A DNA stretch of 64,000 bases from an uncultured archaeon (GCA_964410585.1 CAYPFW010000001.1:68781-132780); one strand, 5' to 3'; positions 2,041-26,332 are shown, counted from the stretch's first letter. Notes: a model not told the origin generated them from the letters alone. Translations and numbers: made by a program.

Positions 2041-2616
2041 TTACATGTATCGATAAAGTATATACTTCTTTGCAACTCCAGGCAATTTGTTTTTGACAAA
2101 AACAAACTCAATGACTTCTTTTATATCCCAAACAGGCACAGGTTTCTTGGATTTTCCAAATCTTTTGTCTAAAATTAAAATTACTTCCTTTGTCATTTTC
2201 TCTGCAAAATTTCCATCTTTTATATGGGATTGGTGCAAGCTTTTTTGGATTGATTTGAAAATTTTCTCTGAGTTGAAATCTTCTGTTGTTCCGTCCCTTT
2301 TTTCAACTTTTTTAATTTTTGATTTTTTTGAATGGAGCCAAACAAACATGTATGTGTCACAAACCCTGATCATATTGTTTTCTTTGAAAACAGAGCAAAC
2401 AGATGATCTCACATCTTCTACAGAGACCAAATCTTTCTTCTTTTTCTCCAGAGCCTTCAAAACATCGTCTGCCAAAACTTCTGGCGGGCAAAGTTTGAAA
2501 TTCGCTTGATGGCACGCCTTAGCTATGCTTTTGGTTAGTTTTTTCTTCTCAAATTTCTCAATTGTTCCGTCTCTTTTTCTTATCTTTTTTATCATACTAA
2601 TCACGATGATAGCCAA
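2041..2616 (-). CDS. tandem ATP-cone domain protein
   Basis: Two repeats of the ATP-cone signature (IKKIRKRDGTIEKFEKKKLTKSI... and IKKVEKRDGTTEDFNSEKIFKSI...) with no attached catalytic domain. Confidence 0.65.
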   Translation of the reverse strand: MAIIVISMIKKIRKRDGTIEKFEKKKLTKSIAKACHQANFKLCPPEVLADDVLKALEKKKKDLVSVEDVRSSVCSVFKENNMIRVCDTYMFVWLHSKKSKIKKVEKRDGTTEDFNSEKIFKSIQKSLHQSHIKDGNFAEKMTKEVILILDKRFGKSKKPVPVWDIKEVIEFVFVKNKLPGVAKKYILYRYM

Positions 2617-3409
2617 CCAAATACTTCAGTGTAGCCATTATAATTATTACTAGAGCTATTCCTCCTATTAAATGTAGAAGCAAATATGAAGCAACTGTTG
2701 AAATTATCCACACACCTAAGCCAGCCAAGAATAGGCCAACGAGCAACCTCATTAATCCTCTATTCTCCTTTCTCCACTTCTCCAAGTTTTTCAAACCAAC
2801 ACCAGAGTACGCCATGTAGATTATAGCTAACAAAGGTGCAATGAAAACCAGGTTATACAAAAGCAAAAGCGGCATAGCAGTTAAATATGACATACCGCTC
2901 TGTGACATGTAACTAAGGACAGCCAAGTATGGAGCGCCTGTGCAAGGAAGTTCAATTAGAGTGACAATAACTCCAAACATGAACGCAGAGATCAGGCTTC
3001 TGTGCGTTCCGCGCGCCCTTGTTTCAACAGTTGATACAAACCTTTTTGGCATTGCCAAAGAAAATCCGTGACCATACCAAAAGAAATCTTTAATTTCCAA
3101 AAAACCTGCAAGGATAACAAAACTTCCAATTACCATGTAGAACATTTGGCTCACCAAGGCAACTTCTCTCACAGCATTGAAAACTCCTAGAAGTGTGATT
3201 CCACCAAGCAAATAAGTGACATAGACACCGAGTGTATATACAAACCCATTAACCAAGATCCCCTTTCTATTTTTCGATTTAACCAAAACACTCAAAAGAA
3301 GAATCAAAACACCAATCACACACGGATTTATAGAATCAATGAGGGCGCCTCCGAGAACAACAGGGATTGTAGCCTCTGGAGCCGCAACTATAACTTGTTC
3401 CAGTACCAT
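2597..3409 (-). CDS. DsbD/CcdA-superfamily-like polytopic membrane protein
   Basis: Multiple TM helices with membrane-embedded Cys motifs (INPCVIG and ELPCTGAPYLAVLSYM). Confidence 0.45.
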   Translation of the reverse strand: MVLEQVIVAAPEATIPVVLGGALIDSINPCVIGVLILLLSVLVKSKNRKGILVNGFVYTLGVYVTYLLGGITLLGVFNAVREVALVSQMFYMVIGSFVILAGFLEIKDFFWYGHGFSLAMPKRFVSTVETRARGTHRSLISAFMFGVIVTLIELPCTGAPYLAVLSYMSQSGMSYLTAMPLLLLYNLVFIAPLLAIIYMAYSGVGLKNLEKWRKENRGLMRLLVGLFLAGLGVWIISTVASYLLLHLIGGIALVIIIMATLKYLVGYHRD

Positions 3410-7099: not shown

Positions 7100-8128
7100 A
7101 TGTACAAACTAATCCCTATTCTGCTTTTAGTCGCGATAGTTATTGTTTCTGGTTGTATTTCTGTTCCCCCTACAGTTCCTCCGACACCCCCAGAAAATTC
7201 ATGCAATTGGGATGCTGGACCATGTGATGCAATTATTGGCAAAGGATATTTTTTCAATTCTGAAACAGGCAACTGTGAGCCCTCTCCGAGAAGTGGATGC
7301 AGCGGTCCCCCATTCCAAGACTTATATGAGTGCCAATCGTCTTGTACAGGAAAAATAGATCCTAAAGACAAATGTTTACCCTTGACTCAATCTGAGTGTG
7401 AATCAACTGTAGGATGTGAACCATACTTTGAAAAAGTTTGCGGTTTTGCTGGAGATTGTAATGATCTATATTATAGCTGCGTGCCTGCAGAAGTAGATCC
7501 AGCAACACTCTGTGATGACGTCAAATGCCCTGAAGGACAAGCATGTTTTGAAGGTGGGTGTGTATCAACTACATCAGAAACAATTGTCTTGAATTTTGAT
7601 GGATATAGAGAGTCTTGTACAGATGAGCCAAAACTGCTTGTTGAAAAGAATGGAAAAAGAACAGAAGTCAAAAACTATCTCTGGGATACAGCTCCGATTT
7701 ATCTAAATGGAGAATATAGAGAATATCCTACAATGTGTGATTATGCTGTGTGTCAAAGTGTTTCAGAATATCCGATTGATGTTGAGCTTGTATCGTATGA
7801 ACAAATTGGCACAAAAGAAGGAGTACCAGAATACACTACATTGCCAATAAAACAGCCTGTTACAGTAGAATTGAATTATTACAAAACAGAAGATGATTGT
7901 AACAAAAAAATAAATACACAGAAATTTTCGCAAACTTATAATTCTAATGATGTCGAGTTATCAGAAGAAAAACTGTGCCAACAAGCAGGCGGCGAGTGGA
8001 AAACTTTCAACAATGGATGTGTAGATTCATGCCGCAGATATGAAATGTGTACACAGGCTCTTACAGATGGCTGCGACTGTGGGCCAGATAAATGCTGGGG
8101 TGGAGAAAGATGTTTAAATAATTCCTAA
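7100..8128 (+). CDS. Cys-rich secreted lipoprotein with Kunitz/BPTI-like domain
   Basis: Signal peptide plus lipobox-like VSGC; residues 35-82 give C-x6-C-x16-C-x7-C-x10-C-x3-C with GPC, YFFN, SGC landmarks of the Kunitz fold. Confidence 0.65.
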   Translation: MYKLIPILLLVAIVIVSGCISVPPTVPPTPPENSCNWDAGPCDAIIGKGYFFNSETGNCEPSPRSGCSGPPFQDLYECQSSCTGKIDPKDKCLPLTQSECESTVGCEPYFEKVCGFAGDCNDLYYSCVPAEVDPATLCDDVKCPEGQACFEGGCVSTTSETIVLNFDGYRESCTDEPKLLVEKNGKRTEVKNYLWDTAPIYLNGEYREYPTMCDYAVCQSVSEYPIDVELVSYEQIGTKEGVPEYTTLPIKQPVTVELNYYKTEDDCNKKINTQKFSQTYNSNDVELSEEKLCQQAGGEWKTFNNGCVDSCRRYEMCTQALTDGCDCGPDKCWGGERCLNNS

Positions 8129-8550: not shown

Positions 8551-9228
8551 ATGGCAGTTGAATTTGTTACAGTAGATAGATTATCAGATGCAAATTTTGA
8601 GGAAGTTGTGAGAATACATGCTTTTTCTTGGCTTCCTATTCTTCAAAGGGAGCTACAAACAGAAGACCAGGACGCAATTTTATCAGCGGTTAGAAATCAA
8701 TACAATTCTAGAAGAGAAGTTTTTCCAGAAGGCCAAATAGCTGCTATTTCAGGTGTTTTGGTAGGTTCAATAAGCTCCCTTGTTGTTAGAACACAAACAG
8801 TTGCCGATCTCCCGCCAACATATTGTGAGATGACAGATAGAGGATATTTGAGAAATCATGTTCCAGATGGAAATACTTTAGTCTGTCCAACTGTCACAGT
8901 TGATAAAAATTTTAGAGGTTTTGGAATAGCGAAAGATTTGGTAAAGGCACAGGCTAGACTCGCTGCTCAAAGAGGCTCTGAATTTTTGTATGCTTATTCT
9001 AGACCAGCTGGTTTCAGAAAATTTATTGGAAAAAGCGGAGATATGCCAGTAGAGACGTATGTTGGTTTGAAAAGAAATGGTTCACTTCAAGATCCTGTTT
9101 TAGGTATGCACTATGATAACGGTGCCTGTGTAGCAAGAATAATTCCAGACGCAAGGCCAGCTGATGTGGATGCCCGTGGCCACATTGTTGTGATGCAATA
9201 TCCGAGGGAAGCTTGGAGAAGAGGCTGA
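8551..9228 (+). CDS. GNAT-fold acyltransferase-like protein
   Basis: RGFGIAKDLV motif A-like; Ala/Arg/Val-richer composition than neighbours. Confidence 0.5.
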   Translation: MAVEFVTVDRLSDANFEEVVRIHAFSWLPILQRELQTEDQDAILSAVRNQYNSRREVFPEGQIAAISGVLVGSISSLVVRTQTVADLPPTYCEMTDRGYLRNHVPDGNTLVCPTVTVDKNFRGFGIAKDLVKAQARLAAQRGSEFLYAYSRPAGFRKFIGKSGDMPVETYVGLKRNGSLQDPVLGMHYDNGACVARIIPDARPADVDARGHIVVMQYPREAWRRG

Positions 9229-9303: not shown

Positions 9304-10494
9304 TTGGCTATGAAACTCTATGAGTTTGAAGGTAAAGAACTTTTTAAAAAGTCAGGGATAGCTGTGCCAAAATCTATACTTGTTGGAAGCCCTGAAAACT
9401 TACCAAAGAACCTTCTGGTTGTAAAATCCCAACTTCTGTCAGGAAAAAGAGGAAAGGCTGGTGTGATAAAAGTTTGCTCTTCGCAAGAGGACGTAGAAAA
9501 ATCTGTAAAAGAATTTTTGGGGAAAAAAGTCAACAATGAAGAAATTAAAAAAATTCTGCTCGAAGAAAAACTCGATGTCAAAAAAGAATATTACTTGTCA
9601 ATCACATATGACACGCGTGCGCGGTCACCTGTTTTCATTCTCTGTGCATCTGGTGGAATGGATATAGAAGAGTACAAAGAAAAAAATCCAGGAAAAGTTT
9701 TAATTGAGCCAGTTGATTTGACAGAGGAATTTGATCTGAAAAAAGCGCAGGCGCTTGCTAAAAAAGCGGGCTTCCCAGAAAAATCAGCTGAAATAATTTT
9801 GAACCTTTTCAATTGTTTCAAAAAATTCGATTGCAGGATTGCAGAAATAAACCCTTTAGTTGAAACATCGTCTGGTTTTTTCGCAGCTGACTCAAAAATT
9901 GTTTTAGATGATGATGCTTTGTTTAGGCACACTGATCTTGTTTTCCCACCAAGAACAGCAGGGGGAAGACAGCTCACAAAATTAGAAGAAGAAGCAAAAC
10001 AAGTTGATAAAGAAGATTATCGTGGTACAGCAGGCTCGTCTTTCATAGAATTGGATGGCGACATAGCAATTCTTGCTTCAGGTGGAGGGGCTTCAATAAC
10101 ATGTGTAGATGCTTTGATTGCATATGGCGGTCGCCCAGCAAACTATGTTGAATATTCTGGAAATCCGCCAAAAGCAAAGGTGAAAAGGCTCACAGAAGTC
10201 ACTTTGTCTAAACCAAATTTGAAAGGCTGTTGGATAGTTGGTGGCAGAGCCAATTTCACAGATATATATGAAACCCTGAAAGGTATTGTAGAGGCTTTGG
10301 AAGAACTAAATCCAAAATATCCTATAATTGTCAGAAGAGCAGGACCAAGAGACAAAGAAGCATTTGAAATGCTAAAAGAAAAAGCAAAAAAGCATGGATG
10401 GAATTTGCTTGCTTTCGGTGATGAAACACCAATGACAGAAACTGCGAAAATTTTGTTGGATGAAATTCGCAAAGTGAATGGGGGAAAGTACTAG
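9304..10494 (+). CDS. sucC: succinyl-CoA synthetase beta-subunit family (ATP-grasp); alternatively citryl-CoA synthetase large subunit
   Basis: MKLYEFEGKELFKKSGIAVP ATP-grasp N-terminus; ASGGGASITCVDALIAYGGRPANYVEYSG CoA-ligase motif. Confidence 0.85.
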   Translation: MAMKLYEFEGKELFKKSGIAVPKSILVGSPENLPKNLLVVKSQLLSGKRGKAGVIKVCSSQEDVEKSVKEFLGKKVNNEEIKKILLEEKLDVKKEYYLSITYDTRARSPVFILCASGGMDIEEYKEKNPGKVLIEPVDLTEEFDLKKAQALAKKAGFPEKSAEIILNLFNCFKKFDCRIAEINPLVETSSGFFAADSKIVLDDDALFRHTDLVFPPRTAGGRQLTKLEEEAKQVDKEDYRGTAGSSFIELDGDIAILASGGGASITCVDALIAYGGRPANYVEYSGNPPKAKVKRLTEVTLSKPNLKGCWIVGGRANFTDIYETLKGIVEALEELNPKYPIIVRRAGPRDKEAFEMLKEKAKKHGWNLLAFGDETPMTETAKILLDEIRKVNGGKY

Positions 10495-10495
10495 T

Positions 10496-11389
10496 ATGTC
10501 AATCCTAATCGACAAAAATACAAAAGTATTGGTTCAGGGAATCACAGGAAAAGAAGGTTCAAAATCAACAAAAGAAATGATAGAATACGGGACAAAAGTT
10601 GTTGCAGGTGTCACTCCAGGAAAAGGTGGCCAACAAGTTGAGGGGCTTCCTGTTTACAACACAGTAAAAGATGCTGTGCAAAAACATCCAGAAATAAATG
10701 CAACTGTTTTATATGTGCCACCTGCTGGTTTGAAAGCAGCGGCCATCGAGGCCATAGATGCTGGCATTCCTCTTTTGAACATAATTACAGAGCATGTACC
10801 TATCCAAGATTCAGCATACATCTATGCATATGCAAAAAAGAAAAAAGCAAGTATTGTTGGCCCGTCTTCTGTTGGAATAATTTCTCCTGGAAAATGTAGG
10901 CTTGGTTCAATTGGCGGAATAGATCCTTCAATTCAGTTTGTCCCAGGAAATATTGGAGTAATTTCAAAATCAGGTGGAATGTCTTCTGAAATTTCTTTGA
11001 TAATAAAAAAAGCAGGTTTGGGCCAATCTACTGTGGTTGGTATGGGTGGTGATGTTGTCGCAGGTTCAACATTCCACGAGTTCCTAGAACTTTTTGAAAA
11101 AGATTCAGAGACAAAAGGAGTTGTTGTTTTTGGCGAGCTTGGTGGAACATATGAAGAGCAGCTTGCAGAATTTATCAAAGCGAAAAAATTCACAAAACCT
11201 GTTGCTGCTTTCATTGGTGGTGAATTTGCAGTCAATTTGCCAGAAGGACAATCTTTAGGACATGCTGGTGCTTTGATAGAAGGAAAAACGGGCTTGCCTC
11301 AAAACAAGAAAAAGGCGCTCCAAGAAGCTGGTGTAAAAGTTGCAAAAGTTCCAGGCGAACTCGGGGAATTGATCAAAGGATTAATTTGA
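10496..11389 (+). CDS. sucD: succinyl-CoA synthetase alpha-subunit family; alternatively citryl-CoA synthetase small subunit
   Basis: [37 protein letters not shown], phosphohistidine loop [11 protein letters not shown]; start set to the ATG 18 nt into the ORF-track frame, abutting the sucC stop. Confidence 0.9.
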
Positions 11390-11422
11390 TACCTTTTTAT
11401 ATATCGGTCAACAATTAATTTT

Positions 11423-12031
11423 ATGCAGCTGAAAACTATTTTTGTGCTCATGCTTATTTCGATTGTTTTAATCTCTGGATGTACAGTGCCCCAAGATCAA
11501 CAAAAACTAAAAATTGAAAAAACAACAGACACTGATTTAACATCACAAGTGGAAAGTGATCAGCAGAAAACAGAAACCCCTTCTGAGCAAACTAAAACAG
11601 TTCCCTCTGACAAAGAAACAAAAAGCTCAGAAGATTTGTCAACAAGTGAGCCTCTAAAATTTTCAGGAAATGTTTTAGCTGGAACATCGTCTCCTTTTAT
11701 CGAATTCAATAGTCCAGACTTTCAGCTTGCTTTGGAATCAGACAAACTAATTATCCTTTCATTCTATGCAAATTGGTGTCCTATATGTAAAGCAGAAGAG
11801 CCTGAGCTTTTCGCAGGTTTTAATGAGTTAGAAACAGACAATGTTGTTGGCTTTAGGGTTAATTTCAATGACGATCAAACTGATTTTGAAGAACAGAAGC
11901 TAGCAGAGGATTATCAAGTTCCATACCAGCACACAAGAGTTTTTATAAAAAATAAAGAAATTGTTTTAAAAACCCCAGAGTCTTGGACAAAAGAGAGATT
12001 GTTGGAAGAAATAAACAAGTATTTAGAATAA
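11423..12031 (+). CDS. thioredoxin-fold lipoprotein (TlpA/ResA-like thiol-disulfide oxidoreductase)
   Basis: Signal peptide with LISGC lipobox; WCPIC active-site motif. Confidence 0.75.
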   Translation: MQLKTIFVLMLISIVLISGCTVPQDQQKLKIEKTTDTDLTSQVESDQQKTETPSEQTKTVPSDKETKSSEDLSTSEPLKFSGNVLAGTSSPFIEFNSPDFQLALESDKLIILSFYANWCPICKAEEPELFAGFNELETDNVVGFRVNFNDDQTDFEEQKLAEDYQVPYQHTRVFIKNKEIVLKTPESWTKERLLEEINKYLE

Positions 12032-12032
12032 T

Positions 12033-12752
12033 ATGAATAGGCAAACTGTAATTTTCCTGAACTCAGTTGCTTTTGTTCTAGGTTTTTCTTTTATTTTTTC
12101 TTTAGTTGGTGTTTTAGTGAACTCTATTCTTTCAAATGTTGCATACACAACTGTAAATCTGCTTCGATTGGTTGGTGGAACAGTGATCATACTTTTTGGG
12201 ATTTTTCTGATAGCTTCACTGAAATATAAAATCCCTTTCCTGCAATCAGAGCATAAGATAAAAATTAAAAAATTCAAAATAAGTTATATTTCTTCTTTTT
12301 TGTTTGGTGTTGCCTTTGCAGTTGGTTGGACTCCATGTGTCGGTGCTATCTTAGGTTCAATATACGCCCTAGCTGCTACCTCTCCTGGTTCTAGCTTCCT
12401 TCTTTTGTTCACATATTCATTGGGAATTGGTATACCGTTTTTGATTGCAGGCGCATTCACATCAAAAGTCTCAAAGTTTGTTGAAAAATCCCAAAAAGTT
12501 TTAAAGTATTTCAATATAATTGGTGGCCTGCTTTTGATTTTAATTGGACTCTTTGTTTTATTCAATTATTTAGGAATTGTGGCTGCATTTTTTGTTGGAG
12601 GGGAAGGTATTGTAGTTTCAGGGCAATTGAATTTTTTAATTGCGTTTTTAGCAGGCGTTGTAACTTTTATTTCTCCATGTATTCTTCCTCTGCTTCCTGC
12701 TTTCTTCTCCTATATGGCTGGAACAGCTGCAACCACTTTAAAAGAAAATTAG
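12033..12752 (+). CDS. CcdA/DsbD-family membrane thiol-disulfide transporter, apparently circularly permuted
   Basis: GWTPCVGAILGS near residue 100 and FISPCILPLLPAFFSYMAG at the extreme C-terminus, i.e. the two canonical CcdA Cys helices in reversed order. Confidence 0.7.
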   Translation: MNRQTVIFLNSVAFVLGFSFIFSLVGVLVNSILSNVAYTTVNLLRLVGGTVIILFGIFLIASLKYKIPFLQSEHKIKIKKFKISYISSFLFGVAFAVGWTPCVGAILGSIYALAATSPGSSFLLLFTYSLGIGIPFLIAGAFTSKVSKFVEKSQKVLKYFNIIGGLLLILIGLFVLFNYLGIVAAFFVGGEGIVVSGQLNFLIAFLAGVVTFISPCILPLLPAFFSYMAGTAATTLKEN

Positions 12753-12810
12753 CGATTGCCGTATATTCTGAGAATATGCTTTTAAAACCGTCAGATCTAA
12801 TTAGTGTGAT

Positions 12811-13557
12811 ATGACAGACAAGAAATGGAAGACTAGGATTGCAGATTCGTCTGATGAAAGGACAGTTGTAAGAGGATACAATTTGATGGATTTGATTGGT
12901 CGCCTTTCATTTTCAGAAATGATTTTTTTAGAATTGAGAGGAAAACTTCCAAATGAAAAAGAGAGGAAAATGATGGACGCAATTCTTGTCTCAACTGTAG
13001 AGCATGGTATAGCGCCTCCATCTATCACAGCAGCTAGGACAGCCTTTTCTGGAGGAAATCCGATTTCAGCAGGCGTCGCAGCAGGTGTTTTGGCAATTGG
13101 TGAACATCATGGTGGAGCAATTGAACAAGCCGCAAAAGTTTACCAAGAGAACCTTTTGAAATCAGCAGATGAAGTTGTCAAAGATTATAGAACAAAGAGA
13201 ATGAGACTTCCTGGATATGGTCACAAAATTTACACAATTGATCCAAGAACAGTGAAAATGTTCCAAGTGGCTGAAGAGCTGGGAATTTTCGGCCACCACT
13301 GCAGGTTTGCACAAGAGGTCGAAAAATCTTTGGAAAAAGATTTGGGCAGAAAACTTTGTTTGAATGTTGACGGTGCCATTGCTGCAATTATGTCTGACAT
13401 GGGTTTTGATTGGAGATTGGGGAAAGGATTTTTCATCATTGGGAGAACAGTTGGGATAATTGCACACTTGCACGAAGAATGGACAACAGAACCTCCTTTC
13501 AGAAGATTGGACAGGTCAGAATATGACTATCTGGGCGAAGAAGGGAAGAAGTTGTAG
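12811..13557 (+). CDS. short citrate-synthase-family protein (citryl-CoA lyase-like, 248 aa)
   Basis: RGYNL, HGGAIE, LPGYGHKIYTIDPR and NVDGAIAAI motifs in citrate-synthase order but lacking the large central segment. Confidence 0.7.
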   Translation: MTDKKWKTRIADSSDERTVVRGYNLMDLIGRLSFSEMIFLELRGKLPNEKERKMMDAILVSTVEHGIAPPSITAARTAFSGGNPISAGVAAGVLAIGEHHGGAIEQAAKVYQENLLKSADEVVKDYRTKRMRLPGYGHKIYTIDPRTVKMFQVAEELGIFGHHCRFAQEVEKSLEKDLGRKLCLNVDGAIAAIMSDMGFDWRLGKGFFIIGRTVGIIAHLHEEWTTEPPFRRLDRSEYDYLGEEGKKL

Positions 13558-13918: not shown

Positions 13919-14461
13919 ATGGAAATAGTAACAAAAGATTTTAAGGAGATTTTTTCTGCAGAAATTATTTCAATAACAGGCGGCCTGTTAGCTGGTTTAC
14001 TTTTGGCTTTTTATGTTGACAAAATATATCTTGTTCCAGGAATTTTCATCCTCCTCCCAGGATTTTTGGAAATGAGAGGAAACATAAGTGGAACAATTTC
14101 AGCAAGGCTGAGTTCAGGACTTTTCCTCAATGTGGTTAAGCCTTCTATAAAAAATAACAGAGTACTAAAAGGCAATGTCCTTGCTTCAATTGTTTTGGTT
14201 GTTCTTGTCTCTCTTCTACTTGGGGCAGTAAGCTACCTTGTTACTTATTTTATTTTTGGCTTAAATTTCCCTCAAATAATTTTGATTTCCTTTATTGCAG
14301 CTGTTTTATCAAGTGTTATTCAGATACCGCTTTCAATTGCTACAACTTTTTGGATTTTCAAAAAAGGGCATGATCCAAACAATATAATGGGACCTTACAT
14401 AACAACAACAGGCGACATAATTAGTATAGCTTCCCTTTTGGTAGCAATATTTTTGGTATGA
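13919..14461 (+). CDS. MgtE-like divalent-cation transporter membrane domain protein
   Basis: Polytopic; GNISGTISARLSSGLFL resembles the MgtE TM-domain signature. Confidence 0.55.
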   Translation: MEIVTKDFKEIFSAEIISITGGLLAGLLLAFYVDKIYLVPGIFILLPGFLEMRGNISGTISARLSSGLFLNVVKPSIKNNRVLKGNVLASIVLVVLVSLLLGAVSYLVTYFIFGLNFPQIILISFIAAVLSSVIQIPLSIATTFWIFKKGHDPNNIMGPYITTTGDIISIASLLVAIFLV

Positions 14462-15165
14462 AAAAATTCCCTAAAATTTCAGATAAAATAAGGAAGAAAA
14501 TTGTAGGTTTGGAAAGAAAAAAGCACCACCCACTGACACACCATGTTCATAGAAAGCACGGGATCTCCCATAAAACACTTTTGTACATGAAAGAGTACGG
14601 GCCAAAATCACATGTCTACCATGTAATTGTTAAAGAAAGCCTGAGAGTGCTTATCTTGGCATCCTTGATATCATCTATAGGCGGATTTTCCCTTCAATTA
14701 ATTGGATCAAAAATTGTTTCAATTATTCCTCTCCTAATCTTGCTACCAGCCCTAAACAACATGATAGGAAGCTACGGTACAATAATTTCTTCAAAATTTA
14801 CTATAGGTCTCTATACAGGAAAAGTAGGGACAAATTGGTGGAGGTCTGAATACACGCATAAACTTTTTGTTTCAATTTTTTTAATTTCTATATTTTCCAC
14901 AATTTACATAAGCCTACTGTCATCTGGAATTGCATATATTAAAGGATTTGGATTGACATTTGATTTGGTTTTCAATATCCTGAAAATATCTTTTGTAGCA
15001 ACCATGCTATTGGTTGGAATTATTTTTTTGGTTTCTGTTGCTTTGGGTTGGCATTTCTACAAAAAACAAGAAGACCCAAATAACTTTTTGATCCCAATAA
15101 CCACATCTATAGCAGATTTTGGAAGCATGATTGTTTTCATGCTCATGGTAAGCTTTTTATTCTAG
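14458..15165 (+). CDS. MgtE-like divalent-cation transporter membrane domain protein (paralogue of upstream gene)
   Basis: ATGA start/stop overlap with upstream ORF; NNMIGSYGTIISSKFTIGLY motif. Confidence 0.55.
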   Translation: MKKFPKISDKIRKKIVGLERKKHHPLTHHVHRKHGISHKTLLYMKEYGPKSHVYHVIVKESLRVLILASLISSIGGFSLQLIGSKIVSIIPLLILLPALNNMIGSYGTIISSKFTIGLYTGKVGTNWWRSEYTHKLFVSIFLISIFSTIYISLLSSGIAYIKGFGLTFDLVFNILKISFVATMLLVGIIFLVSVALGWHFYKKQEDPNNFLIPITTSIADFGSMIVFMLMVSFLF

Positions 15166-15235: not shown

Positions 15236-15796
15236 CTAAGACATTTCTTTGTAAACCAAAATCTCATCCAAATATAGATCACCAAACTTTCCTCCATTTG
15301 GTATTTTGCCGCAATTTTTAAAGCCAAGTTTTTCATGTAATTTAGCAGAAGCTAGGTTATCTGAAAAATAAGATGAGCGGATAATTTTTGCGTCCATTTC
15401 TTTTGCCAAACCAAAAAGGGTTTCTGCCATTTGCGTTCCCAATCCAAGTTCCCTGTACTCTTTTTTCAAAATTATTCCAAATGTGACAACATGGTCTATT
15501 GGGCTCGGTGGCTCTAAATTTTTAGCAACTGAACAATTTCCAACAACCTTTCCATCAATTTCAACAAACAAATTTATCTCCAATCCTTGTTTCATTCTTT
15601 TCAAAGTTGTTTTGAGCCATTTTATTTCTTGTTTGTGGTCTGCTTTTTTGACAGAGCTCACCCTCGCGCCTTCATCAACAAGAGAATTTATCAGAACTTG
15701 AAGGTCTTTTAGATCTTCCATTTTCGGATATCTAAATTTGACCTTCTTTCCTTCTACCTGAAACTCTCGAATGACTTCTCCTTGTTTAAATTTCAT
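15236..15796 (-). CDS. GNAT family N-acetyltransferase
   Basis: RELGLGTQMAETL motif A and C-terminal GNAT core. Confidence 0.75.
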   Translation of the reverse strand: MKFKQGEVIREFQVEGKKVKFRYPKMEDLKDLQVLINSLVDEGARVSSVKKADHKQEIKWLKTTLKRMKQGLEINLFVEIDGKVVGNCSVAKNLEPPSPIDHVVTFGIILKKEYRELGLGTQMAETLFGLAKEMDAKIIRSSYFSDNLASAKLHEKLGFKNCGKIPNGGKFGDLYLDEILVYKEMS

Positions 15797-18272: not shown

Positions 18273-21200
18273 ATGAGAAAAATACTTTTCCTTCCAGTAT
18301 TTTTGCTAATTATCAGTTTTATTGCTCTTCCTAGCCAATCGCAGACAACTTTTAGGATAATGAACGTTAGCTTTTTGTTTGGTGATCCCTATACCGGCGA
18401 CCCATCAACAGGTGTTGATCCAACAAATTTTATAGGTGAGTGTGGTGGTGATTTACCCAAAGTCTGTACAGATCTTGGTTTTACTCTTCCTGAAGGTCCT
18501 GGAAAACAATCTGGTCTAGGTGTCGACAGGACACTTTGTACAAAGTCAGATGGCACTCAAAGTTATCAATACAGTTGCGATATATCTGGAATCAACTCAG
18601 ATAAATTCATCGATAAGATAGATCCGATTAGCAGGGTTCTCACATACAAAAGTGACCAACTCAAAGGTCCGATCCAATACATTCTCCATGATATTCTAAG
18701 CACAGGTTTCCCAAACAATTTAGATCCTTTTGTTTTCACAAAATCTATTCCTCCATTATATTCAACTGTTCAAGTGTTGGCAGAGCCAAATGGTTTAGTA
18801 GTGATAAAACCAGAAGAGGCAGTCAGAAAATACGACAATACAATTGCTTGGAATGATTCTTGCGTTGGCGATCTCAGCGAGCAATTTACAAATGATTTTT
18901 ACAGAATGGACAAGCAGACAGCAGCAAAAAATGGTTTTGAAATAGTTGAAAATTCCTGCACAGGTTTAGTTGGACAAAAACTAAAATATCATGTGCAAGT
19001 TCACCAACGCGGTTTTAACTACGAGAAGCAAAACGTAGAATGCAAACAAGGTGGCTCGCACTACAATCAGTTTTATGCATCAACTGGTCCAGAGCCAATT
19101 CCTTTTCCATACATTGCTATGTGTGAACCAGATTCGGGATACAGACCCTTGCTTTCAAGAGATTATGAACAAACAGGCCAATGGGGTTGGCCAACTTATT
19201 TCCCTCAAAGGCCTCGGCCAGGATCAACATACAGCGCCACAAACCAGTATTCCTTCTGCGAGGCCTTTGACATGGAGTATGAAGATGTCCATGATTCGGC
19301 CGGAAACTTAGTGAGCTACATATTTGGCGCAAGCGATTCTCCAAGATGTTTCCTTTGGCCAGGACCAGGAGACTCTGTAAGCATAAAACAACTTTCAAAA
19401 ATCCTTGTTTGGAATTTCCCATATATTTTCAATCCAGGTAGCTGCGGGGTTTTCGATTCTCTGAGACAGCGACAACAAGGTGGTGGTAAAGCAGGCTTCA
19501 ATGATCCTGCTTCATACAGAAGAGATGCAGCAGACATCATGTGCAAGAAGCCAATTTTGTTCAATAACCCAGATTATGAAGATGCTGAAAGGAGTGGTTC
19601 ATATATTTTCGAGCCAAGCAAAACAAAAACAGATCCCGGTGTCCAATTTTTGAACAATACAGTCAGGCCTTTTTTCGAACAAACAGATCGGTTGAACCAG
19701 GAATATTTTTCTGGCCCAAGCAAATATAGGAAAATTCAGTTCCATCTACCTGTTTTAACTTCAATTGAAGTCACAGATCTTCAAGGAAACATCTTAGCTC
19801 CAAAGCAACAACAGCTCCAAAACACAACAGTGACTTTGTATGGTGTTGAGGTTGGCCAAAAAATAAAAATAAAAGCTAAAGTAAAAGAATTAGACAGTCA
19901 CAATACATCTATCTTTGTTTTCCAGTCAACAAACTTTGGATGGGGAATGTTTGGACCAACGCAAGGCGGACAAGTCCCTATTTTTGGATGCGATTTCATT
20001 GACTCTTCAACATGTTTGCAAGGTGATGTGAATTTCAACAATGTAACCTTGACAGGCCCTCTCCACCAAAACCTAGGAGGCGTAACACAAGAAAAAGAAA
20101 TAGAATTTGTCTATGAAATTCCTTTAACATATCGTGCACCTCTTGTTGGAACAACATCTCTAAATCCAGGTGATCCATATCCTCTGTTTATTGGTTTTGC
20201 AGATGAGTTTAGCAATTTCGATTCTGTAAAAATCCTTTTCGAAATAGTTCCACCAATTTGTGCAAACCAAAAACACGATGCATCTTCAGGTGAAACAGAT
20301 TTGGACTGTGGTGGCCAAACTTGCCCTACTTGCTTAGATGGCCAAAGATGCAACCTAGATTCAGACTGCCAATCTGGCTGGTGCTACTCAGGATCAAATC
20401 TTCCGCCAAAACCACAACCAACATACGGCGACGGCATTTGCCGCACACCAACATGTTCTGATGGAATTCAGAATCAGGGTGAAACAGCTGTAGATTGTGG
20501 CGGTACAAACTGTGCACCTTGTGGTGGTTGTCAAGAAAATTGGATAACCTCGCCTTGGTCTGCATGCAAAGGCGGACAGCAAACACGAATTGTCAGAGAT
20601 ACAAATAGCTGCAATAACCCAACACCTGTGAACCCGCGTCCAGCAACACAAAGGTCTTGTGTTAACTTAGCTGCATGTGTGCCAACACCAAACCAGTGCG
20701 GTGGTTCAAATGGTTGTCAAATCCTTCCTTATTTGAACGGAGTATCTTGTGGATCAAACCAGGCAGGTGTCTGTTTTGCTGGAAGCTGCTATTTGCCAAC
20801 AACTAAAAAACAACCGCCTGTGGGCCAGTGTTTGCAAACAGACTGGTCACCATGCGAAAAACACAGTATCAATAATAAAGTAGGTTTCTACCAAATCAGA
20901 AATGTAGTTAAAGGAAATCTCAATGTTGCATGCACCCAGCTTCCACCAGATCAAAGGCCAGGCGCTGTAAGATCATGTTCGCCTCAGGCAGGTCCTGGTC
21001 CAAGAGATTTGTGTCAACAGTCTTTGATAGCCTCAGGTTTTGACACACGTTTATCAACTGATTTCACATCTCTAGCAAACTTAAACAGTGTTGAAGGATT
21101 CAAAATAGGGAACCAATTCGGTCAAATTGAGTTTTTAGGAAAATCTGACTTGTCTTCAATAGATTGTTCAAAACTAAATAATGTATTCAAAATAGAAAGA

Positions 21201-21578
21201 AACAAAGTTTTCGTTGATACAAAAACCTATCCAACATTTAACCAACAGGCTGTAGTTAGCTTGTTCACAAAAGACATCAAAGACCCAATTGTAAAAACAT
21301 GGGACAACCAGTGCATACAAGTCCAGGTTATACGATGGAATCCAGACACAGGTCTTCTAACTTTCAAGGCGCCGAAGTTTAGTGGTTATCAAGCAGTTGA
21401 AAAAGCAACAAGCGGTTGCACACCGCAAACGCCGCTAGCTTTATTACTGATGCTGATCTTAATACCAATAGGTGCAGTTGGTTTTTTGTTGTTTTACATG
21501 TACTACAGAAACAAAAAACTGCTGGGGCATGAGTTCCTATGGGAGAAGTACGTACAAAGCAAAGGAGACGCTAAATGA
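18273..21578 (+). CDS. large Cys-rich cell-surface protein (1101 aa) with signal peptide and C-terminal TM anchor
   Basis: N-terminal hydrophobic leader; repeated DCGG-x2-C-x2-C modules (DLDCGGQTCPTC, VDCGGTNCAPCGG); C-terminal LALLLMLILIPIGAVGFLLFYMYY followed by basic tail. Confidence 0.8.
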   Translation: MRKILFLPVFLLIISFIALPSQSQTTFRIMNVSFLFGDPYTGDPSTGVDPTNFIGECGGDLPKVCTDLGFTLPEGPGKQSGLGVDRTLCTKSDGTQSYQYSCDISGINSDKFIDKIDPISRVLTYKSDQLKGPIQYILHDILSTGFPNNLDPFVFTKSIPPLYSTVQVLAEPNGLVVIKPEEAVRKYDNTIAWNDSCVGDLSEQFTNDFYRMDKQTAAKNGFEIVENSCTGLVGQKLKYHVQVHQRGFNYEKQNVECKQGGSHYNQFYASTGPEPIPFPYIAMCEPDSGYRPLLSRDYEQTGQWGWPTYFPQRPRPGSTYSATNQYSFCEAFDMEYEDVHDSAGNLVSYIFGASDSPRCFLWPGPGDSVSIKQLSKILVWNFPYIFNPGSCGVFDSLRQRQQGGGKAGFNDPASYRRDAADIMCKKPILFNNPDYEDAERSGSYIFEPSKTKTDPGVQFLNNTVRPFFEQTDRLNQEYFSGPSKYRKIQFHLPVLTSIEVTDLQGNILAPKQQQLQNTTVTLYGVEVGQKIKIKAKVKELDSHNTSIFVFQSTNFGWGMFGPTQGGQVPIFGCDFIDSSTCLQGDVNFNNVTLTGPLHQNLGGVTQEKEIEFVYEIPLTYRAPLVGTTSLNPGDPYPLFIGFADEFSNFDSVKILFEIVPPICANQKHDASSGETDLDCGGQTCPTCLDGQRCNLDSDCQSGWCYSGSNLPPKPQPTYGDGICRTPTCSDGIQNQGETAVDCGGTNCAPCGGCQENWITSPWSACKGGQQTRIVRDTNSCNNPTPVNPRPATQRSCVNLAACVPTPNQCGGSNGCQILPYLNGVSCGSNQAGVCFAGSCYLPTTKKQPPVGQCLQTDWSPCEKHSINNKVGFYQIRNVVKGNLNVACTQLPPDQRPGAVRSCSPQAGPGPRDLCQQSLIASGFDTRLSTDFTSLANLNSVEGFKIGNQFGQIEFLGKSDLSSIDCSKLNNVFKIERNKVFVDTKTYPTFNQQAVVSLFTKDIKDPIVKTWDNQCIQVQVIRWNPDTGLLTFKAPKFSGYQAVEKATSGCTPQTPLALLLMLILIPIGAVGFLLFYMYYRNKKLLGHEFLWEKYVQSKGDAK

Positions 21579-22881: not shown

Positions 22882-24042
22882 CTACTCCTCAAATATTTCT
22901 ACAACCTTATCTTGTTTTTTGTTTATTAAAAGCTCGAAAACGTTCTCATATTTTTGCACATCTAGGCCTTCTTTCTCCAAGTTTTCCCTAAGAAGTTTTT
23001 TTCCAAGTTCTTGGACAGATAATTCTTGTTCCTGTATACTAACTCCACTTAGCTTTTCATCTTGTTTTTCAAAACCGAAATAAAGGAGGCCCTTGTCTCC
23101 ATATTTTATTTTCAACTCATCTGCAAACTTTCCGTCCCTAAGTTTTATTTTCACAAGCGGCGGCTTCAAAAAATTCTCTGAAAAAATTTCTTTTAACTTG
23201 CTTTCAATTTCCTCCTGAGAAGAGTTTTCAAAATTCAAATAAAAAACCTTTCTCTGAGTTTTGAGTTCCTCGAATTTTATTTCATTTGATAAAATACCTT
23301 CAATGCTTCTCTGTATATCGATTTTGTAAACTCTAATAGGTTTTGTTTGACTTGTGATTTGTGTGACAACTAGAGAGCCAGGATGTATGAATGGTTTGTT
23401 GTCGTACATACTTTCTTTCGGTTCATGTATATGACCATTTATGTACAAATCAAAGCCTTTTGGTATTGATTCCTGAGGAAGCAAATGCTCAGCGAAAACA
23501 AAGCCTGAAATTGATTGATGCAACATCAAAATATTATATGTTCCGTCTATTGTTTTTGGATTCCACTGTTTCAAAATATTTTCTGCAAATTGGTCTGGTA
23601 CACCACCCATTCCTTGGACAGCAATTTTCTCCCCATTTTTTTCCAGCACAATTCCGTTACAGTGAAGTTGGACCAAAAAGCCAGCGCGCTCCAAAGCCTC
23701 TACTGGATTTAACAGGCCTTTACTTCTCCTTTCGTGGTTTCCAAAAATTGAAATCACAGGAATCCCATATCCAAATTTTAGATTTTTTGATAAGTCCTTG
23801 TTTATCCCCTCAACAATTTTTGTCTCAGATTTTTTCCCAAAAGCAGACAACAGGTTCTCCATTGTTTTTGTAAAAATTTCTGTGTTTGGTGTCTTGTAAT
23901 CAAAAATATCACCAGCAATCAAAATCAGATCACAGTCTTTGCAAATCTCCATTGCTTCTTCTAAGTTTTCAAAAGCATCTTTTTCCCTTTCTGTACCCTG
24001 ACCAAAACCCAAGTGTATATCTGAGAACAAGCCGATTTTCAT
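22882..24042 (-). CDS. mre11: Mre11/SbcD-family metallophosphoesterase nuclease
   Basis: Phosphoesterase motifs DIHLG, GDIFD, GNHE, LHQ, GHIH in canonical order. Confidence 0.8.
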   Translation of the reverse strand: MKIGLFSDIHLGFGQGTEREKDAFENLEEAMEICKDCDLILIAGDIFDYKTPNTEIFTKTMENLLSAFGKKSETKIVEGINKDLSKNLKFGYGIPVISIFGNHERRSKGLLNPVEALERAGFLVQLHCNGIVLEKNGEKIAVQGMGGVPDQFAENILKQWNPKTIDGTYNILMLHQSISGFVFAEHLLPQESIPKGFDLYINGHIHEPKESMYDNKPFIHPGSLVVTQITSQTKPIRVYKIDIQRSIEGILSNEIKFEELKTQRKVFYLNFENSSQEEIESKLKEIFSENFLKPPLVKIKLRDGKFADELKIKYGDKGLLYFGFEKQDEKLSGVSIQEQELSVQELGKKLLRENLEKEGLDVQKYENVFELLINKKQDKVVEIFEE

Positions 24043-24095
24043 ATGAATCTAAATTCAATCTAAACTTTATATATTCTGTAAATATAATATCCTAT

Positions 24096-24632
24096 ATGAT
24101 ATCAAAATCAGCCAAACTTGTTTTTGTTCTTCTATTAGTTTCAGTTGTTTTAATTTCTGGCTGCACAGAACAGTCTGTGGCAAATGGCTCAAGTCCATCT
24201 GATTCAGTCAATTCAAATCAGCTAACAGAATGCCCTCAAGGACAGGTAAAAACAGATTCAGGCTGTATGCCTGAAAACAAAGAAGAAACGCCTAATACAA
24301 TTCCAGATGAATCTTCAAAACCAGCAAATAACGAGCCTACCGAGCAATCACAAACTATCAAAGAATTTTCAATGACAGCCAAGCAATGGTCTTTTGACCC
24401 TGAAACAATTACAGTCAAGAAAGGAGATCATGTCAAACTAACAATAAAAAGCATAGATGTAACACACGGATTTGCTATCCCTGATTTTGGAGTGAGCGAA
24501 AACTTGGAGCCGAATAAAGAAATAGTTGTAGAATTTGATGCAGATAAGACAGGCACATTCACATTTTTCTGTTCTGTGTTCTGTGGTTCTGGTCATGCAT
24601 CGATGAAAGGCACACTTGTTGTTGAAGAATAG
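24096..24632 (+). CDS. CuA-type cupredoxin lipoprotein (cytochrome oxidase subunit II-like domain)
   Basis: Start set to the internal ATG (ORF-track frame +210) to avoid overlap with mre11; lipobox LISGC; DVTHGFAIPDFG and FFCSVFCGSGHASM (H...C-x3-C-x3-H-x2-M) CuA ligand pattern. Confidence 0.7.
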   Translation: MISKSAKLVFVLLLVSVVLISGCTEQSVANGSSPSDSVNSNQLTECPQGQVKTDSGCMPENKEETPNTIPDESSKPANNEPTEQSQTIKEFSMTAKQWSFDPETITVKKGDHVKLTIKSIDVTHGFAIPDFGVSENLEPNKEIVVEFDADKTGTFTFFCSVFCGSGHASMKGTLVVEE

Positions 24633-25555: not shown

Positions 25556-26332
25556 ATGAAAGATCCATTTAAAAAATATCCAGTGAAAACATACGTCCTT
25601 ATAGCAGTTCTAATAATGTCAATCCCGGGGATCCTACAGTTTGGATACCAAAACACAGTTCCCCAAATGGTTTTGGCAGTCCTTGTGGCTGCTGGTTTAG
25701 ATCTCCTAGTTAACAAACTGAAAAAAGGCCCGACATATTTTGTCCCAACTTCCGGAATAATTTCAGGTTTAATTGTCTCAACAATACTTGCTCCTGGCTC
25801 TGTTTGGTATGTCCCTGTGGCTGGTGCAGCAATTGCAATCTTGTCCAAACATGTTTTCAAAGTTAAGCTAAACAATTTCTGGAACCATGTTTTTAACCCA
25901 GCAAACTTCGCGCTGCTTGTATTGGTTGGTTTTGGAATAGGAAAAGATGCTTGGTGGATTGGTACAAATTCTATTCTTGTTGCTATCCTCGGTTTGTTCA
26001 TCTTATGGAGGCTTAGGAAAATTTCAATAGTTGTCCCATTCTTTTTGTTTTTCCTCCTTTCAACTTCAATTACATCAGTCTTCATCCAAAGGCAACTGAC
26101 AACTGACATACTTTTAGCAGAAGCAACAGGAGGCTCCACACTATTCTTCATGTTCATCATGCTCCAAGAACCAATGACAACACCAAGGAAAAAATATGGT
26201 AGGATAGTTTTTGGTTCAGTTGTTGGTGTTTTGGTTCCACTTCTTTTGGCTTTCCCTGCTACTGGTTTTATCAGCATATATTTTGCCTTGGCTATAGGAA
26301 ACATTCTCGTGCCAATTTTAAATAGAGTATGA
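25556..26332 (+). CDS. NqrB/RnfD-family-like integral membrane protein (258 aa)
   Basis: Polytopic; SKHVFKVKLNNFWNHVFNPANFALLVL resembles the RnfD/NqrB conserved FNPA segment. Confidence 0.55.
   Translation: MKDPFKKYPVKTYVLIAVLIMSIPGILQFGYQNTVPQMVLAVLVAAGLDLLVNKLKKGPTYFVPTSGIISGLIVSTILAPGSVWYVPVAGAAIAILSKHVFKVKLNNFWNHVFNPANFALLVLVGFGIGKDAWWIGTNSILVAILGLFILWRLRKISIVVPFFLFFLLSTSITSVFIQRQLTTDILLAEATGGSTLFFMFIMLQEPMTTPRKKYGRIVFGSVVGVLVPLLLAFPATGFISIYFALAIGNILVPILNRV

Follow-up and report, generated by a model that had tools for sequence, protein, structure and literature searches.

Predicted citryl-CoA synthetase and citryl-CoA lyase genes as a likely citrate-cleavage system in a DPANN archaeon

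Citryl-CoA synthetase (CCS) and citryl-CoA lyase (CCL) are an established two-enzyme alternative to ATP-citrate lyase (ACL) and were described in Hydrogenobacter and Leptospirillum. In Hydrogenobacter thermophilus the system consists of CcsAB and Ccl (structures 6HXQ and 6HXP; EC 6.2.1.18 and 4.1.3.34). The ACL enzymes AclAB (Chlorobium limicola, 6HXJ; Methanothrix/Methanosaeta concilii, 6HXI) and human ACLY have the same overall reaction, with the difference that AclA fuses the alpha-like and the CCL-like modules in one polypeptide. Succinyl-CoA synthetase (SCS, the product of sucCD) belongs to the same superfamily and has its fold, subunit organisation and phosphohistidine mechanism in common with CcsAB. 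It has previously been reported that CCS/CCL homologues occur in DPANN archaea and in bacteria of the Candidate Phyla Radiation (CPR), some of them misannotated as SCS or citrate synthase, and these homologues were framed by the evolution of the reductive tricarboxylic acid (rTCA) cycle and by syntrophic sharing of the tricarboxylic acid (TCA) cycle (bioRxiv 10.1101/2022.10.25.513756). A study on Woesearchaeota mentions aclA/aclB and sucCD in no more than a figure legend. Here, we analysed a 64,000-nucleotide stretch of DNA from an uncultured archaeon (GCA_964410585.1 CAYPFW010000001.1:68781-132780; hereafter the window) that carries three genes, ccsA, ccsB and ccl, likely to constitute a two-enzyme ATP-dependent citrate-cleavage system that probably serves to produce biosynthetic acetyl-CoA. 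The analysis showed homology to the known enzymes, the presence of diagnostic residues, the position in phylogenetic trees and a conserved order of the genes; the substrate, the direction and the physiological role were inferred.

Five open reading frames (ORFs) were called on the plus strand of this locus (Table 1), and the call together with Pfam and NCBIfam matches bore out the genes, coordinates and domains of a preliminary description, which had proposed a split ATP-citrate lyase made of CcsAB and Ccl. The mechanical ORF of ccsA opened at a TTG codon at position 9304 (9304-10494, 396 aa). The ATG at 9310 was likely the true start since both the NCBI product on record (394 aa, MKLYEFEGK...) and the N-termini of homologues agreed with it. 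The ccsA and ccsB genes overlapped by 17 nt, and ccl was a separate ORF with its start (12811) 1.4 kb from the ccsB stop (11389) and two unrelated genes in between. The window also contained a number of archaeal markers, namely an S4e/L5/L2/L4/S3 ribosomal cluster, Rpb7-like RpoE, archaeal ProRS, GatB, RtcB and archease, and the nearest named relatives of its ribosomal protein S3 all came from Aenigmarchaeota/Aenigmatarchaeota (59-64% identity). An exact match to S3 was located on a 600,453-bp NCBI contig, which also encoded CcsA, CcsB and Ccl. Thus, the host was a DPANN archaeon with a reduced genome, probably from the Aenigmatarchaeota. The closest relatives of the locus came from records named groundwater metagenomes.

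The clearest assignment of the three was that of ccl, which is predicted to encode a citryl-CoA lyase. Its product scored 322.3 bits against the NCBIfam model NF004869 'citryl-CoA lyase' (cutoff 212) and 280.2 bits against NF004866 (cutoff 245), while the best NCBIfam citrate synthase model gave 82.6 bits against a cutoff of 421. The top match among solved structures was the H. thermophilus CCL (6hxp_A; E 6e-83; 54% identity), aligned nearly from end to end (query residues 4-244 with phmmer and 6-234 with BLASTP), and the second-ranked matches were citrate synthases at 4e-21. When aligned with Escherichia coli GltA, the protein covered residues 49-100 and 217-421, and about 116 residues (GltA ~101-216) were missing, as expected from the earlier remark that the large central segment of citrate synthase was absent. 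The motifs that the same description had listed (RGY, HGGA, GYGHxxYxxxDPR and a catalytic Asp) were all found: RGY (R21-G22-Y23), HGGA (H100), GYGHKIYTIDPR (H138 and R146, with GYGH and DPR) and NVDG (D187). These four motifs were invariant in 24 relatives, as were the residues H100, H138, R146, D187, R212 and R232, which lined up with the active-site motifs of E. coli GltA.

The large subunit, CcsA, matched the Pfam families ATP-grasp_2 (3e-44) and Citrate_bind (PF16114; 90.4 bits, cutoff 26.8), and it missed both NCBIfam SucC models (245 bits against a cutoff of 375.55 and 239 bits against 370). Among solved structures it ranked the large subunit of the H. thermophilus CCS first (6hxq_B, 1e-61), followed by Chlorobium AclB (6hxj_A, 1e-52) and the SCS beta subunit from Thermus (1e-51). 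If only the C-terminal, substrate-binding half of CcsA was used as a query, then the top three matches were CCS, AclB and M. concilii ACLY-A, and the Thermus SCS beta subunit was fourth (2.2e-14), marginally above human ACLY (2.4e-13).

Residue numbers of human ACLY were read off its search alignment with CcsA. In ACLY crystal structures, N346, T348 and R379 are citrate ligands. At the ACLY-numbered sites CcsA had LASGGGASIT, NYVEYSGNPP, GGRANFTDIY and IIVRRAGPRD, which were of the same type as in Chlorobium AclB and human ACLY and contained the ACLY-type motifs GGGAS, EYSG, ANFT and VRRxGP. SucC from E. coli and four Leptospirillum/Nitrospirae copies had GAGLAM, DVGGG, GGIVRC and VRLxG instead. 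The residues G281-283, S308, E599, S663, G664-665 and H760 have been described as belonging to the catalytic centre of ACLY (PMC11365397). The equivalents of G281-283, S308, N346, T348 and R379 were kept in CcsA, and all five SCS copies differed. The substrate domain of CcsA is predicted to be of the citrate type and not of the succinate type.

The small subunit, CcsB, contained the Pfam domains CoA_binding and Ligase_CoA and missed the two NCBIfam SucD models, one of them just barely (326.6 bits against a cutoff of 336) and the other with 320.9 bits against 353.2. It was 48% identical to the small subunit of the H. thermophilus CCS (6hxq_A, 5.5e-77) and 44-49% identical to SucD proteins. The phosphohistidine loop GHAGA reported before was indeed in place (Table 1). 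The following three features of CcsB were common to all ccl-linked copies, and SucD proteins differed in each of them: a 4-6-residue insertion in the IGxIGGxDP loop, a 3-residue insertion ahead of GHAGA (neither insertion was present in any SucD), and the sequence SKSGGM, which corresponds to S663-G664-G665 of ACLY and was SRSGTL in SucD. In comparison to H. thermophilus CcsB (353 aa), which has a C-terminal extension of about 50 residues, the window protein lacked this extension. Thus, the two subunits could not be called canonical succinyl-CoA-synthetase-type proteins, as had been suggested, since they were below the NCBIfam SucC and SucD cutoffs and carried ACL/CCS-specific motifs and indels. 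Since the E-values against solved structures were between 1e-61 and 6e-83, chance resemblance was excluded.

Trees were calculated from Kimura distances by neighbour-joining (200 bootstraps) with a limited sampling of references, which were reconstructions from the PDB alignments, E. coli SucC, SucD and GltA, and the paired CCS and SCS copies of Leptospirillum loci. Both CcsA and CcsB were split from all SCS references in 200 of 200 bootstraps and grouped with ccl-linked CCS/AclB sequences; in the case of CcsB, the separated SucD references were those of E. coli, Aeropyrum, Methanocaldococcus jannaschii, Thermus and Leptospirillum. The CCS of the Aquificae/Leptospirillum/Acidulodesulfobacterium type formed a clade of their own (200/200), and the window CcsA was placed in a second clade together with sequences from DPANN, CPR and Anaerolineae. 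This second clade also contained Chlorobium AclB (148/200 by neighbour-joining with a single ACL sequence), so the position of AclB within the DPANN/CPR-type CcsA clade is tentative. The placement agreed with the motifs, because the DPANN/CPR type had the ACL-like EYSG and ANFT whereas the Aquificae type had DIGG and ANNT/ASNT. The previously reported DPANN/CPR homologues (bioRxiv 10.1101/2022.10.25.513756) belonged to the same clade as the window proteins. In the lyase tree, Ccl was found among DPANN sequences, and the outgroup, E. coli GltA, was distant. Ccl also grouped with the CCL of H. thermophilus, for which both biochemical and structural characterisation is available. A tree with both subunits inside SCS and the lyase among short citrate synthases had been named beforehand as the outcome contrary to the CcsAB and Ccl proposal. 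Instead, the separation from SCS was complete and Ccl was far from GltA, so the trees, together with the NCBIfam lyase cutoff, upheld that proposal.

The gene order ccsA-ccsB-ccl was found in the window and in more than 40 related loci (given below by their L numbers), sampled from one genome per species and a metagenome collection by tblastn and ORF clustering, together with the contig flanks of the homologues. Among archaea these loci were from Woese-, Aenigmat-, Micr- and Nanoarchaeota and Diapherotrites, and among bacteria from CPR (Daviesbacteria, Microgenomates, Curtissbacteria and Woykebacteria), Anaerolineae, Leptospirillum/Nitrospirae and Acidulodesulfobacterium-like organisms. The ccsB and ccl genes were unfused in all relatives examined, as they are in H. 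thermophilus and in contrast to AclA. The Leptospirillum loci contained a second, SCS-type SucCD pair beside the CCS pair, and therefore the two types coexist as distinct enzymes. A Ccl-like gene without adjacent ccsAB characterised a Thermoplasmatota/Zixibacteria clade (173/200). Such orphan genes from Thermoplasmatota, Zixibacteria and Ignavibacteria (L028, L031-L033, L038, L042, L050, L054, L056-L058, L060-L086 and many of L112-L167) were 42-49% identical, kept the catalytic residues and had no ccsAB within 8-10 kb.

Apart from two short contigs of the same species (L001 and L002), the window was the sole locus that had the thioredoxin/CcdA pair between ccsB and ccl. The thioredoxin-fold protein had a WCPIC motif and, at its N-terminus, a signal/lipobox-like LISGC. 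In the closest relative (L088/L168-L170), whose Ccl was 90% identical, only a 110-nt spacer separated ccsB from ccl. Since the pair was absent from this relative and from every other locus, a functional role in the citrate system, such as redox regulation, was rejected; the pair was an extracytoplasmic thiol-disulfide module that had been inserted recently. We also rejected a recognisable mobile cassette, as no direct or inverted repeats were found flanking the pair and its GC content was only slightly lower. Unrelated insertions occurred at the same junction elsewhere: two or four small ORFs in Aenigmarchaeota (L175 and L022), a 3.3-kb segment (TspO, PIN, serpin and GDT1) in Diapherotrites (L176) and single ORFs in several CPR loci. 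That the junction tolerated insertions argues for ccl being expressed on its own, as would be expected for two separate enzymes in comparison to a fused ACL.

By homology to SCS, ACL and the H. thermophilus CCS, ATP would phosphorylate His262 of CcsB, and the phosphoryl group would then be passed on to a citrate molecule that the C-terminal domain of CcsA binds, to give citryl phosphate. The attack of CoA would displace the phosphate and produce citryl-CoA, which Ccl may split into acetyl-CoA and oxaloacetate at a His/His/Asp site of the citrate synthase type. In this DPANN archaeon the likely role would be the supply of biosynthetic acetyl-CoA (and oxaloacetate) from citrate rather than an autotrophic rTCA cycle. 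In contrast to H. thermophilus, the host was a reduced-genome archaeon whose window had no sign of a full rTCA cycle, and the relatives of the locus tied the genes to amino-sugar acetylation and not to carbon fixation. No TCA enzyme, pyruvate:ferredoxin oxidoreductase or acetyl-CoA synthetase was found within the 64-kb window.

The use of acetyl-CoA and the cleavage direction were suggested by the gene context in relatives. Besides the trio itself, unbiased clustering of the flanks yielded a single widely recurrent family, the archaeal-type bifunctional sugar-1-phosphate nucleotidylyltransferase/acetyltransferase (TIGR03992, Arch_glmU). The complete gene ended 1-4 nt ahead of ccsA in L003, L020 and L027. 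In the CPR loci L021, L045 and L179 the LbH acetyltransferase half alone abutted ccsA, with a 4-nt overlap in two of the three, and the uridylyltransferase half in L179 was located apart, within a dcw/mur cluster. In five loci (L003, L020, L021, L027 and L045) GlmU or its acetyltransferase half directly adjoined the trio, and the distances were between -4 and +4 nt. The LbH half is the acetyl-CoA-consuming domain of GlmU. Genes for GlmS and a phosphoglucosamine-mutase-type protein flanked the trio in L003, L005 and L095, MurE-type ligases and GlmS flanked it in L021, and in the marine archaeon L180 it was located inside an acetamido-sugar cluster (PseC-like aminotransferase, PseH-like GNAT, a UDP-GlcNAc 3-dehydrogenase-like gene and CMP-sugar synthetase). 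Of the 33 DPANN/CPR-type loci whose flanks could be used, about 13 had an amino-sugar or envelope link if GlmU, GlmS, GlmM, MurE, dcw and acetamido-sugar genes were counted, and because many of the CPR loci were closely related this tally represents fewer independent events. These neighbourhoods suggest that amino-sugar N-acetylation was one major consumer of acetyl-CoA. The presence of the trio together with the archaeal-type GlmU in CPR is a hint that the block was transferred as a whole between archaea and bacteria. In addition to L021, L045 and L179, the loci with a GlmU link were L003, L020, L027, L005, L095 and L108.

A number of observations weighed against the citrate-cleavage interpretation and have to be considered together with its alternatives. 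Between the window CcsA and the characterised CcsA from H. thermophilus the identity was only 35%, and the clade of the window CcsA was sister to the characterised Aquificae CCS clade, not inside it, and tentatively included Chlorobium AclB. The best PDB score of CcsB was that of the Aeropyrum SCS alpha subunit (2YV2; 4e-86), to which its identity (49%) was slightly higher than to H. thermophilus CcsB. The amino-sugar link was missing from L007, L009, L168, L175 and L178 and from the window itself, where tblastn detected no GlmS, GlmM or GlmU (E below 1e-8). In the Diapherotrites locus L176, the genes that came next after ccl encoded a class II fumarase and an SdhA/FrdA-type flavoprotein. Finally, the ACL-type reaction is near equilibrium, so the sequence does not fix its direction. 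The last two points could be read in favour of the reverse operation, where Ccl condenses acetyl-CoA and oxaloacetate to citryl-CoA and CcsAB converts it to citrate and ATP, so that a fermenter would conserve energy with a system that takes the place of citrate synthase. The chemistry would be the same as for cleavage, and no citrate synthase was seen in the 64-kb window. However, neither the window nor the flanks in relatives had an aconitase or isocitrate dehydrogenase by which the citrate could be used, and the recurrent, translationally coupled neighbour was an acetyl-CoA consumer (the GlmU acetyltransferase domain), which fits acetyl-CoA production better; we therefore consider the reverse direction unlikely. 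The arrangement in L176 suggests a reductive sink for oxaloacetate, possibly a branch from oxaloacetate to succinate.

The distance of the CcsA clade from the only characterised CCS, the merely generic NCBI names of its members and the ability of specificity to shift within the SCS/ACL superfamily would also be consistent with another hydroxy- or dicarboxylic acid (e.g., malate, citramalate, 2-methylcitrate or itaconate) being converted to a different acyl-CoA that the lyase splits. This appeared very unlikely, since the equivalents of the ACLY citrate/citryl-phosphate site (GGG, S308-G309, N346, T348 and R379) were identical to those in AclB and ACLY, and Ccl, which was 54% identical to a genuine CCL, kept all the His, Asp and Arg residues of the oxaloacetate/citryl-CoA site of citrate synthase. 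Even more improbable was an ordinary succinyl-CoA synthetase accompanied by a short but complete citrate synthase as remnants of an oxidative TCA cycle. The top NCBIfam names of the first two proteins were indeed SucC and SucD, and the Aeropyrum match of CcsB pointed the same way, but both subunits were below the curated cutoffs, were separated from SCS in every bootstrap and had all the SCS motifs (GAGLAM, DVGGG, GGIVRC, VRLxG and SRSGTL) replaced by those of the ACL/CCS type, and the third protein lacked the ~116 citrate synthase residues and scored 322 bits on the lyase model, whereas no citrate synthase model gave it more than 83 bits. We rejected this possibility on the model cutoffs, motifs, indels and bootstrapped trees. 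Cleavage of citrate by CcsAB and Ccl is the reading that we prefer, and the window locus resembled the H. thermophilus system in having the same three parts with the same domain architecture and the CCS-specific loop insertions in CcsB.

We also considered a broader and more doubtful scenario. The DPANN/CPR-type CCS/CCL might possibly be a dedicated citrate-to-acetyl-CoA module for N-acetylation of envelope sugars in ultra-small episymbionts that moved as a block between DPANN and CPR. In this scenario, many members have the module translationally coupled to the acetyl-CoA-consuming half of an archaeal-type GlmU and located in clusters for UDP-GlcNAc, murein or acetamido sugars. It may be the closest unfused relative of ACL, with an AclB-like beta subunit and separate alpha subunit and lyase, and the window copy would be an orthologue that lost or never had the linkage.

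Several other genes near the trio or elsewhere in the window are listed in Table 1. The GNAT-like ORF upstream of ccsA was rejected as a conserved acetyl-CoA-using partner because it scored 20.6 bits against a Pfam cutoff of 20.7 and had no NCBIfam match; the closest relative (L168) did not have it conserved at this position. The downstream GNAT was likewise rejected as an orthologue of the GNATs beside the trio in L180 and L175, to which it was similar at the family level only. Two adjacent MgtE-domain membrane proteins were encoded just downstream of ccl, and an NRAMP-family divalent-metal transporter recurred beside the trio in four CPR loci (L016, L018, L020 and L027). This transporter corresponded to a gene cluster (c5) that had been a candidate for GlmM, which we rejected. 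Any tie of these MgtE and NRAMP neighbours to metal-citrate uptake is pure speculation.

Among the more distant genes, an ORF located between archaeal S14/S8/L7Ae-like/NusA-KH genes and archease/RtcB had a complete bacterial RpoD-type sigma-70 (regions 1.2, 2, 3 and 4) in its first ~300 residues (NCBIfam RpoD, 248 bits, under the cutoff), followed by ~530 C-terminal residues with internal repeats and no family match. Sigma-70 genes in DPANN have already been reported (PMC8204110). A secreted cysteine-rich protein without Pfam or NCBIfam matches had an N-terminal cysteine spacing that looked Kunitz/BPTI-like by eye (CNWDAGPC...C...C...C..SC), and its gene was near two CcdA/DsbD-type genes and the secreted thioredoxin. 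Another long ORF was unannotated except for a marginal match to the eukaryotic Nup98-96 autopeptidase S59 domain (PF04096; 29.1 bits against a cutoff of 28.4; residues 935-999). No tRNA or Rfam matches were found in the 64-kb window.

Table 1. Location of the genes discussed in the text. Positions refer to the window unless preceded by the L number of a related locus.
Feature	Position	Strand	Length	Remarks
ccsA, predicted citryl-CoA synthetase large (SucC/AclB-like) subunit	9310-10494	+	394 aa	ATP-grasp and citrate-binding domain
ccsB, predicted citryl-CoA synthetase small (SucD-like) subunit	10478-11389	+	303 aa	CoA-binding domain; phosphohistidine loop GHAGA (His262)
Thioredoxin-fold gene	11423-12031	+	202 aa	WCPIC; secreted or lipid-anchored; Pfam Thioredoxin 1.9e-09
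CcdA/DsbD-type membrane thiol-disulfide electron conduit	12033-12752	+	239 aa	Pfam DsbD_TM 1.9e-11
ccl, predicted citryl-CoA lyase	12811-13557	+	248 aa	Short citrate synthase homologue; Pfam Citrate_synt
LbH acetyltransferase half of GlmU	L179:8292-8936			Adjoins ccsA; TIGR03992
LbH acetyltransferase half of GlmU	L021:7171-7842			Adjoins ccsA; TIGR03992
LbH acetyltransferase half of GlmU	L045:6849-7511			Adjoins ccsA; TIGR03992
ccl, class II fumarase and SdhA/FrdA-type flavoprotein	L176:8766-12867			Diapherotrites
CcdA/DsbD-type gene	2597-3409
Secreted cysteine-rich protein	7100-8128	+	342 aa
GNAT-like ORF	8551-9228	+	225 aa	Upstream of ccsA
Two adjacent MgtE-domain membrane proteins	13919-15165	+
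GNAT	15236-15796			Downstream of ccl
ORF with marginal S59 match	18273-21578	+	1101 aa
Cupredoxin/CoxB- or NosZ-C-terminal-like copper protein	23886-24632	+
RnfD/NqrB-like fragment	25556-26332	+		Overlapped by an antisense ORF of similar length
Adenylate/guanylate cyclase-AAA-TPR protein	31586-34228	-	880 aa
ORF with sigma-70 N-terminal part	53665-56172	+	835 aa

The occurrence of CCS/CCL in DPANN was already known, and the operon link with GlmU and envelope sugars is a new lead that was unseen in the window itself; no published link between CCS/CCL and GlmU or amino-sugar synthesis was found in the literature retrieved. In addition to this lead, the present analysis excluded the thioredoxin/CcdA pair from the system, described an ACL-like yet unfused clade and revealed the poor public naming of the large subunit. 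For DPANN relatives, NCBI named the lyase 'citryl-CoA lyase', and the large subunits of the clade were 'acetate--CoA ligase family protein', 'ATP-grasp domain-containing protein' or 'hypothetical protein'. The names at JGI were mostly 'citryl-CoA synthetase large subunit' and once 'succinyl-CoA synthetase beta subunit'. We also noticed two CcsA homologues of 561-566 aa (P0274 and P0370) in which an N-terminal HAD-phosphatase domain was fused to the ATP-grasp/Citrate_bind protein.

Because of such generic names for the large subunit, pathway reconstructions can overlook the system or mistake it for succinyl-CoA synthetase. A CCS clade that has ACL-type active-site motifs yet unfused subunits also bears on the origin of ATP-citrate lyase from CCS and CCL. 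Most organisms of DPANN and CPR are considered to rely on metabolites from hosts, and the source of their biosynthetic acetyl-CoA is a largely unresolved question. If the CCS/CCL system works as proposed, a single scavenged metabolite, citrate, would provide both acetyl-CoA and oxaloacetate at the cost of one ATP, and the recurring operon link with the GlmU acetyltransferase points to a concrete and testable use of this acetyl-CoA in the synthesis of envelope sugars, i.e., UDP-GlcNAc and further acetamido sugars.

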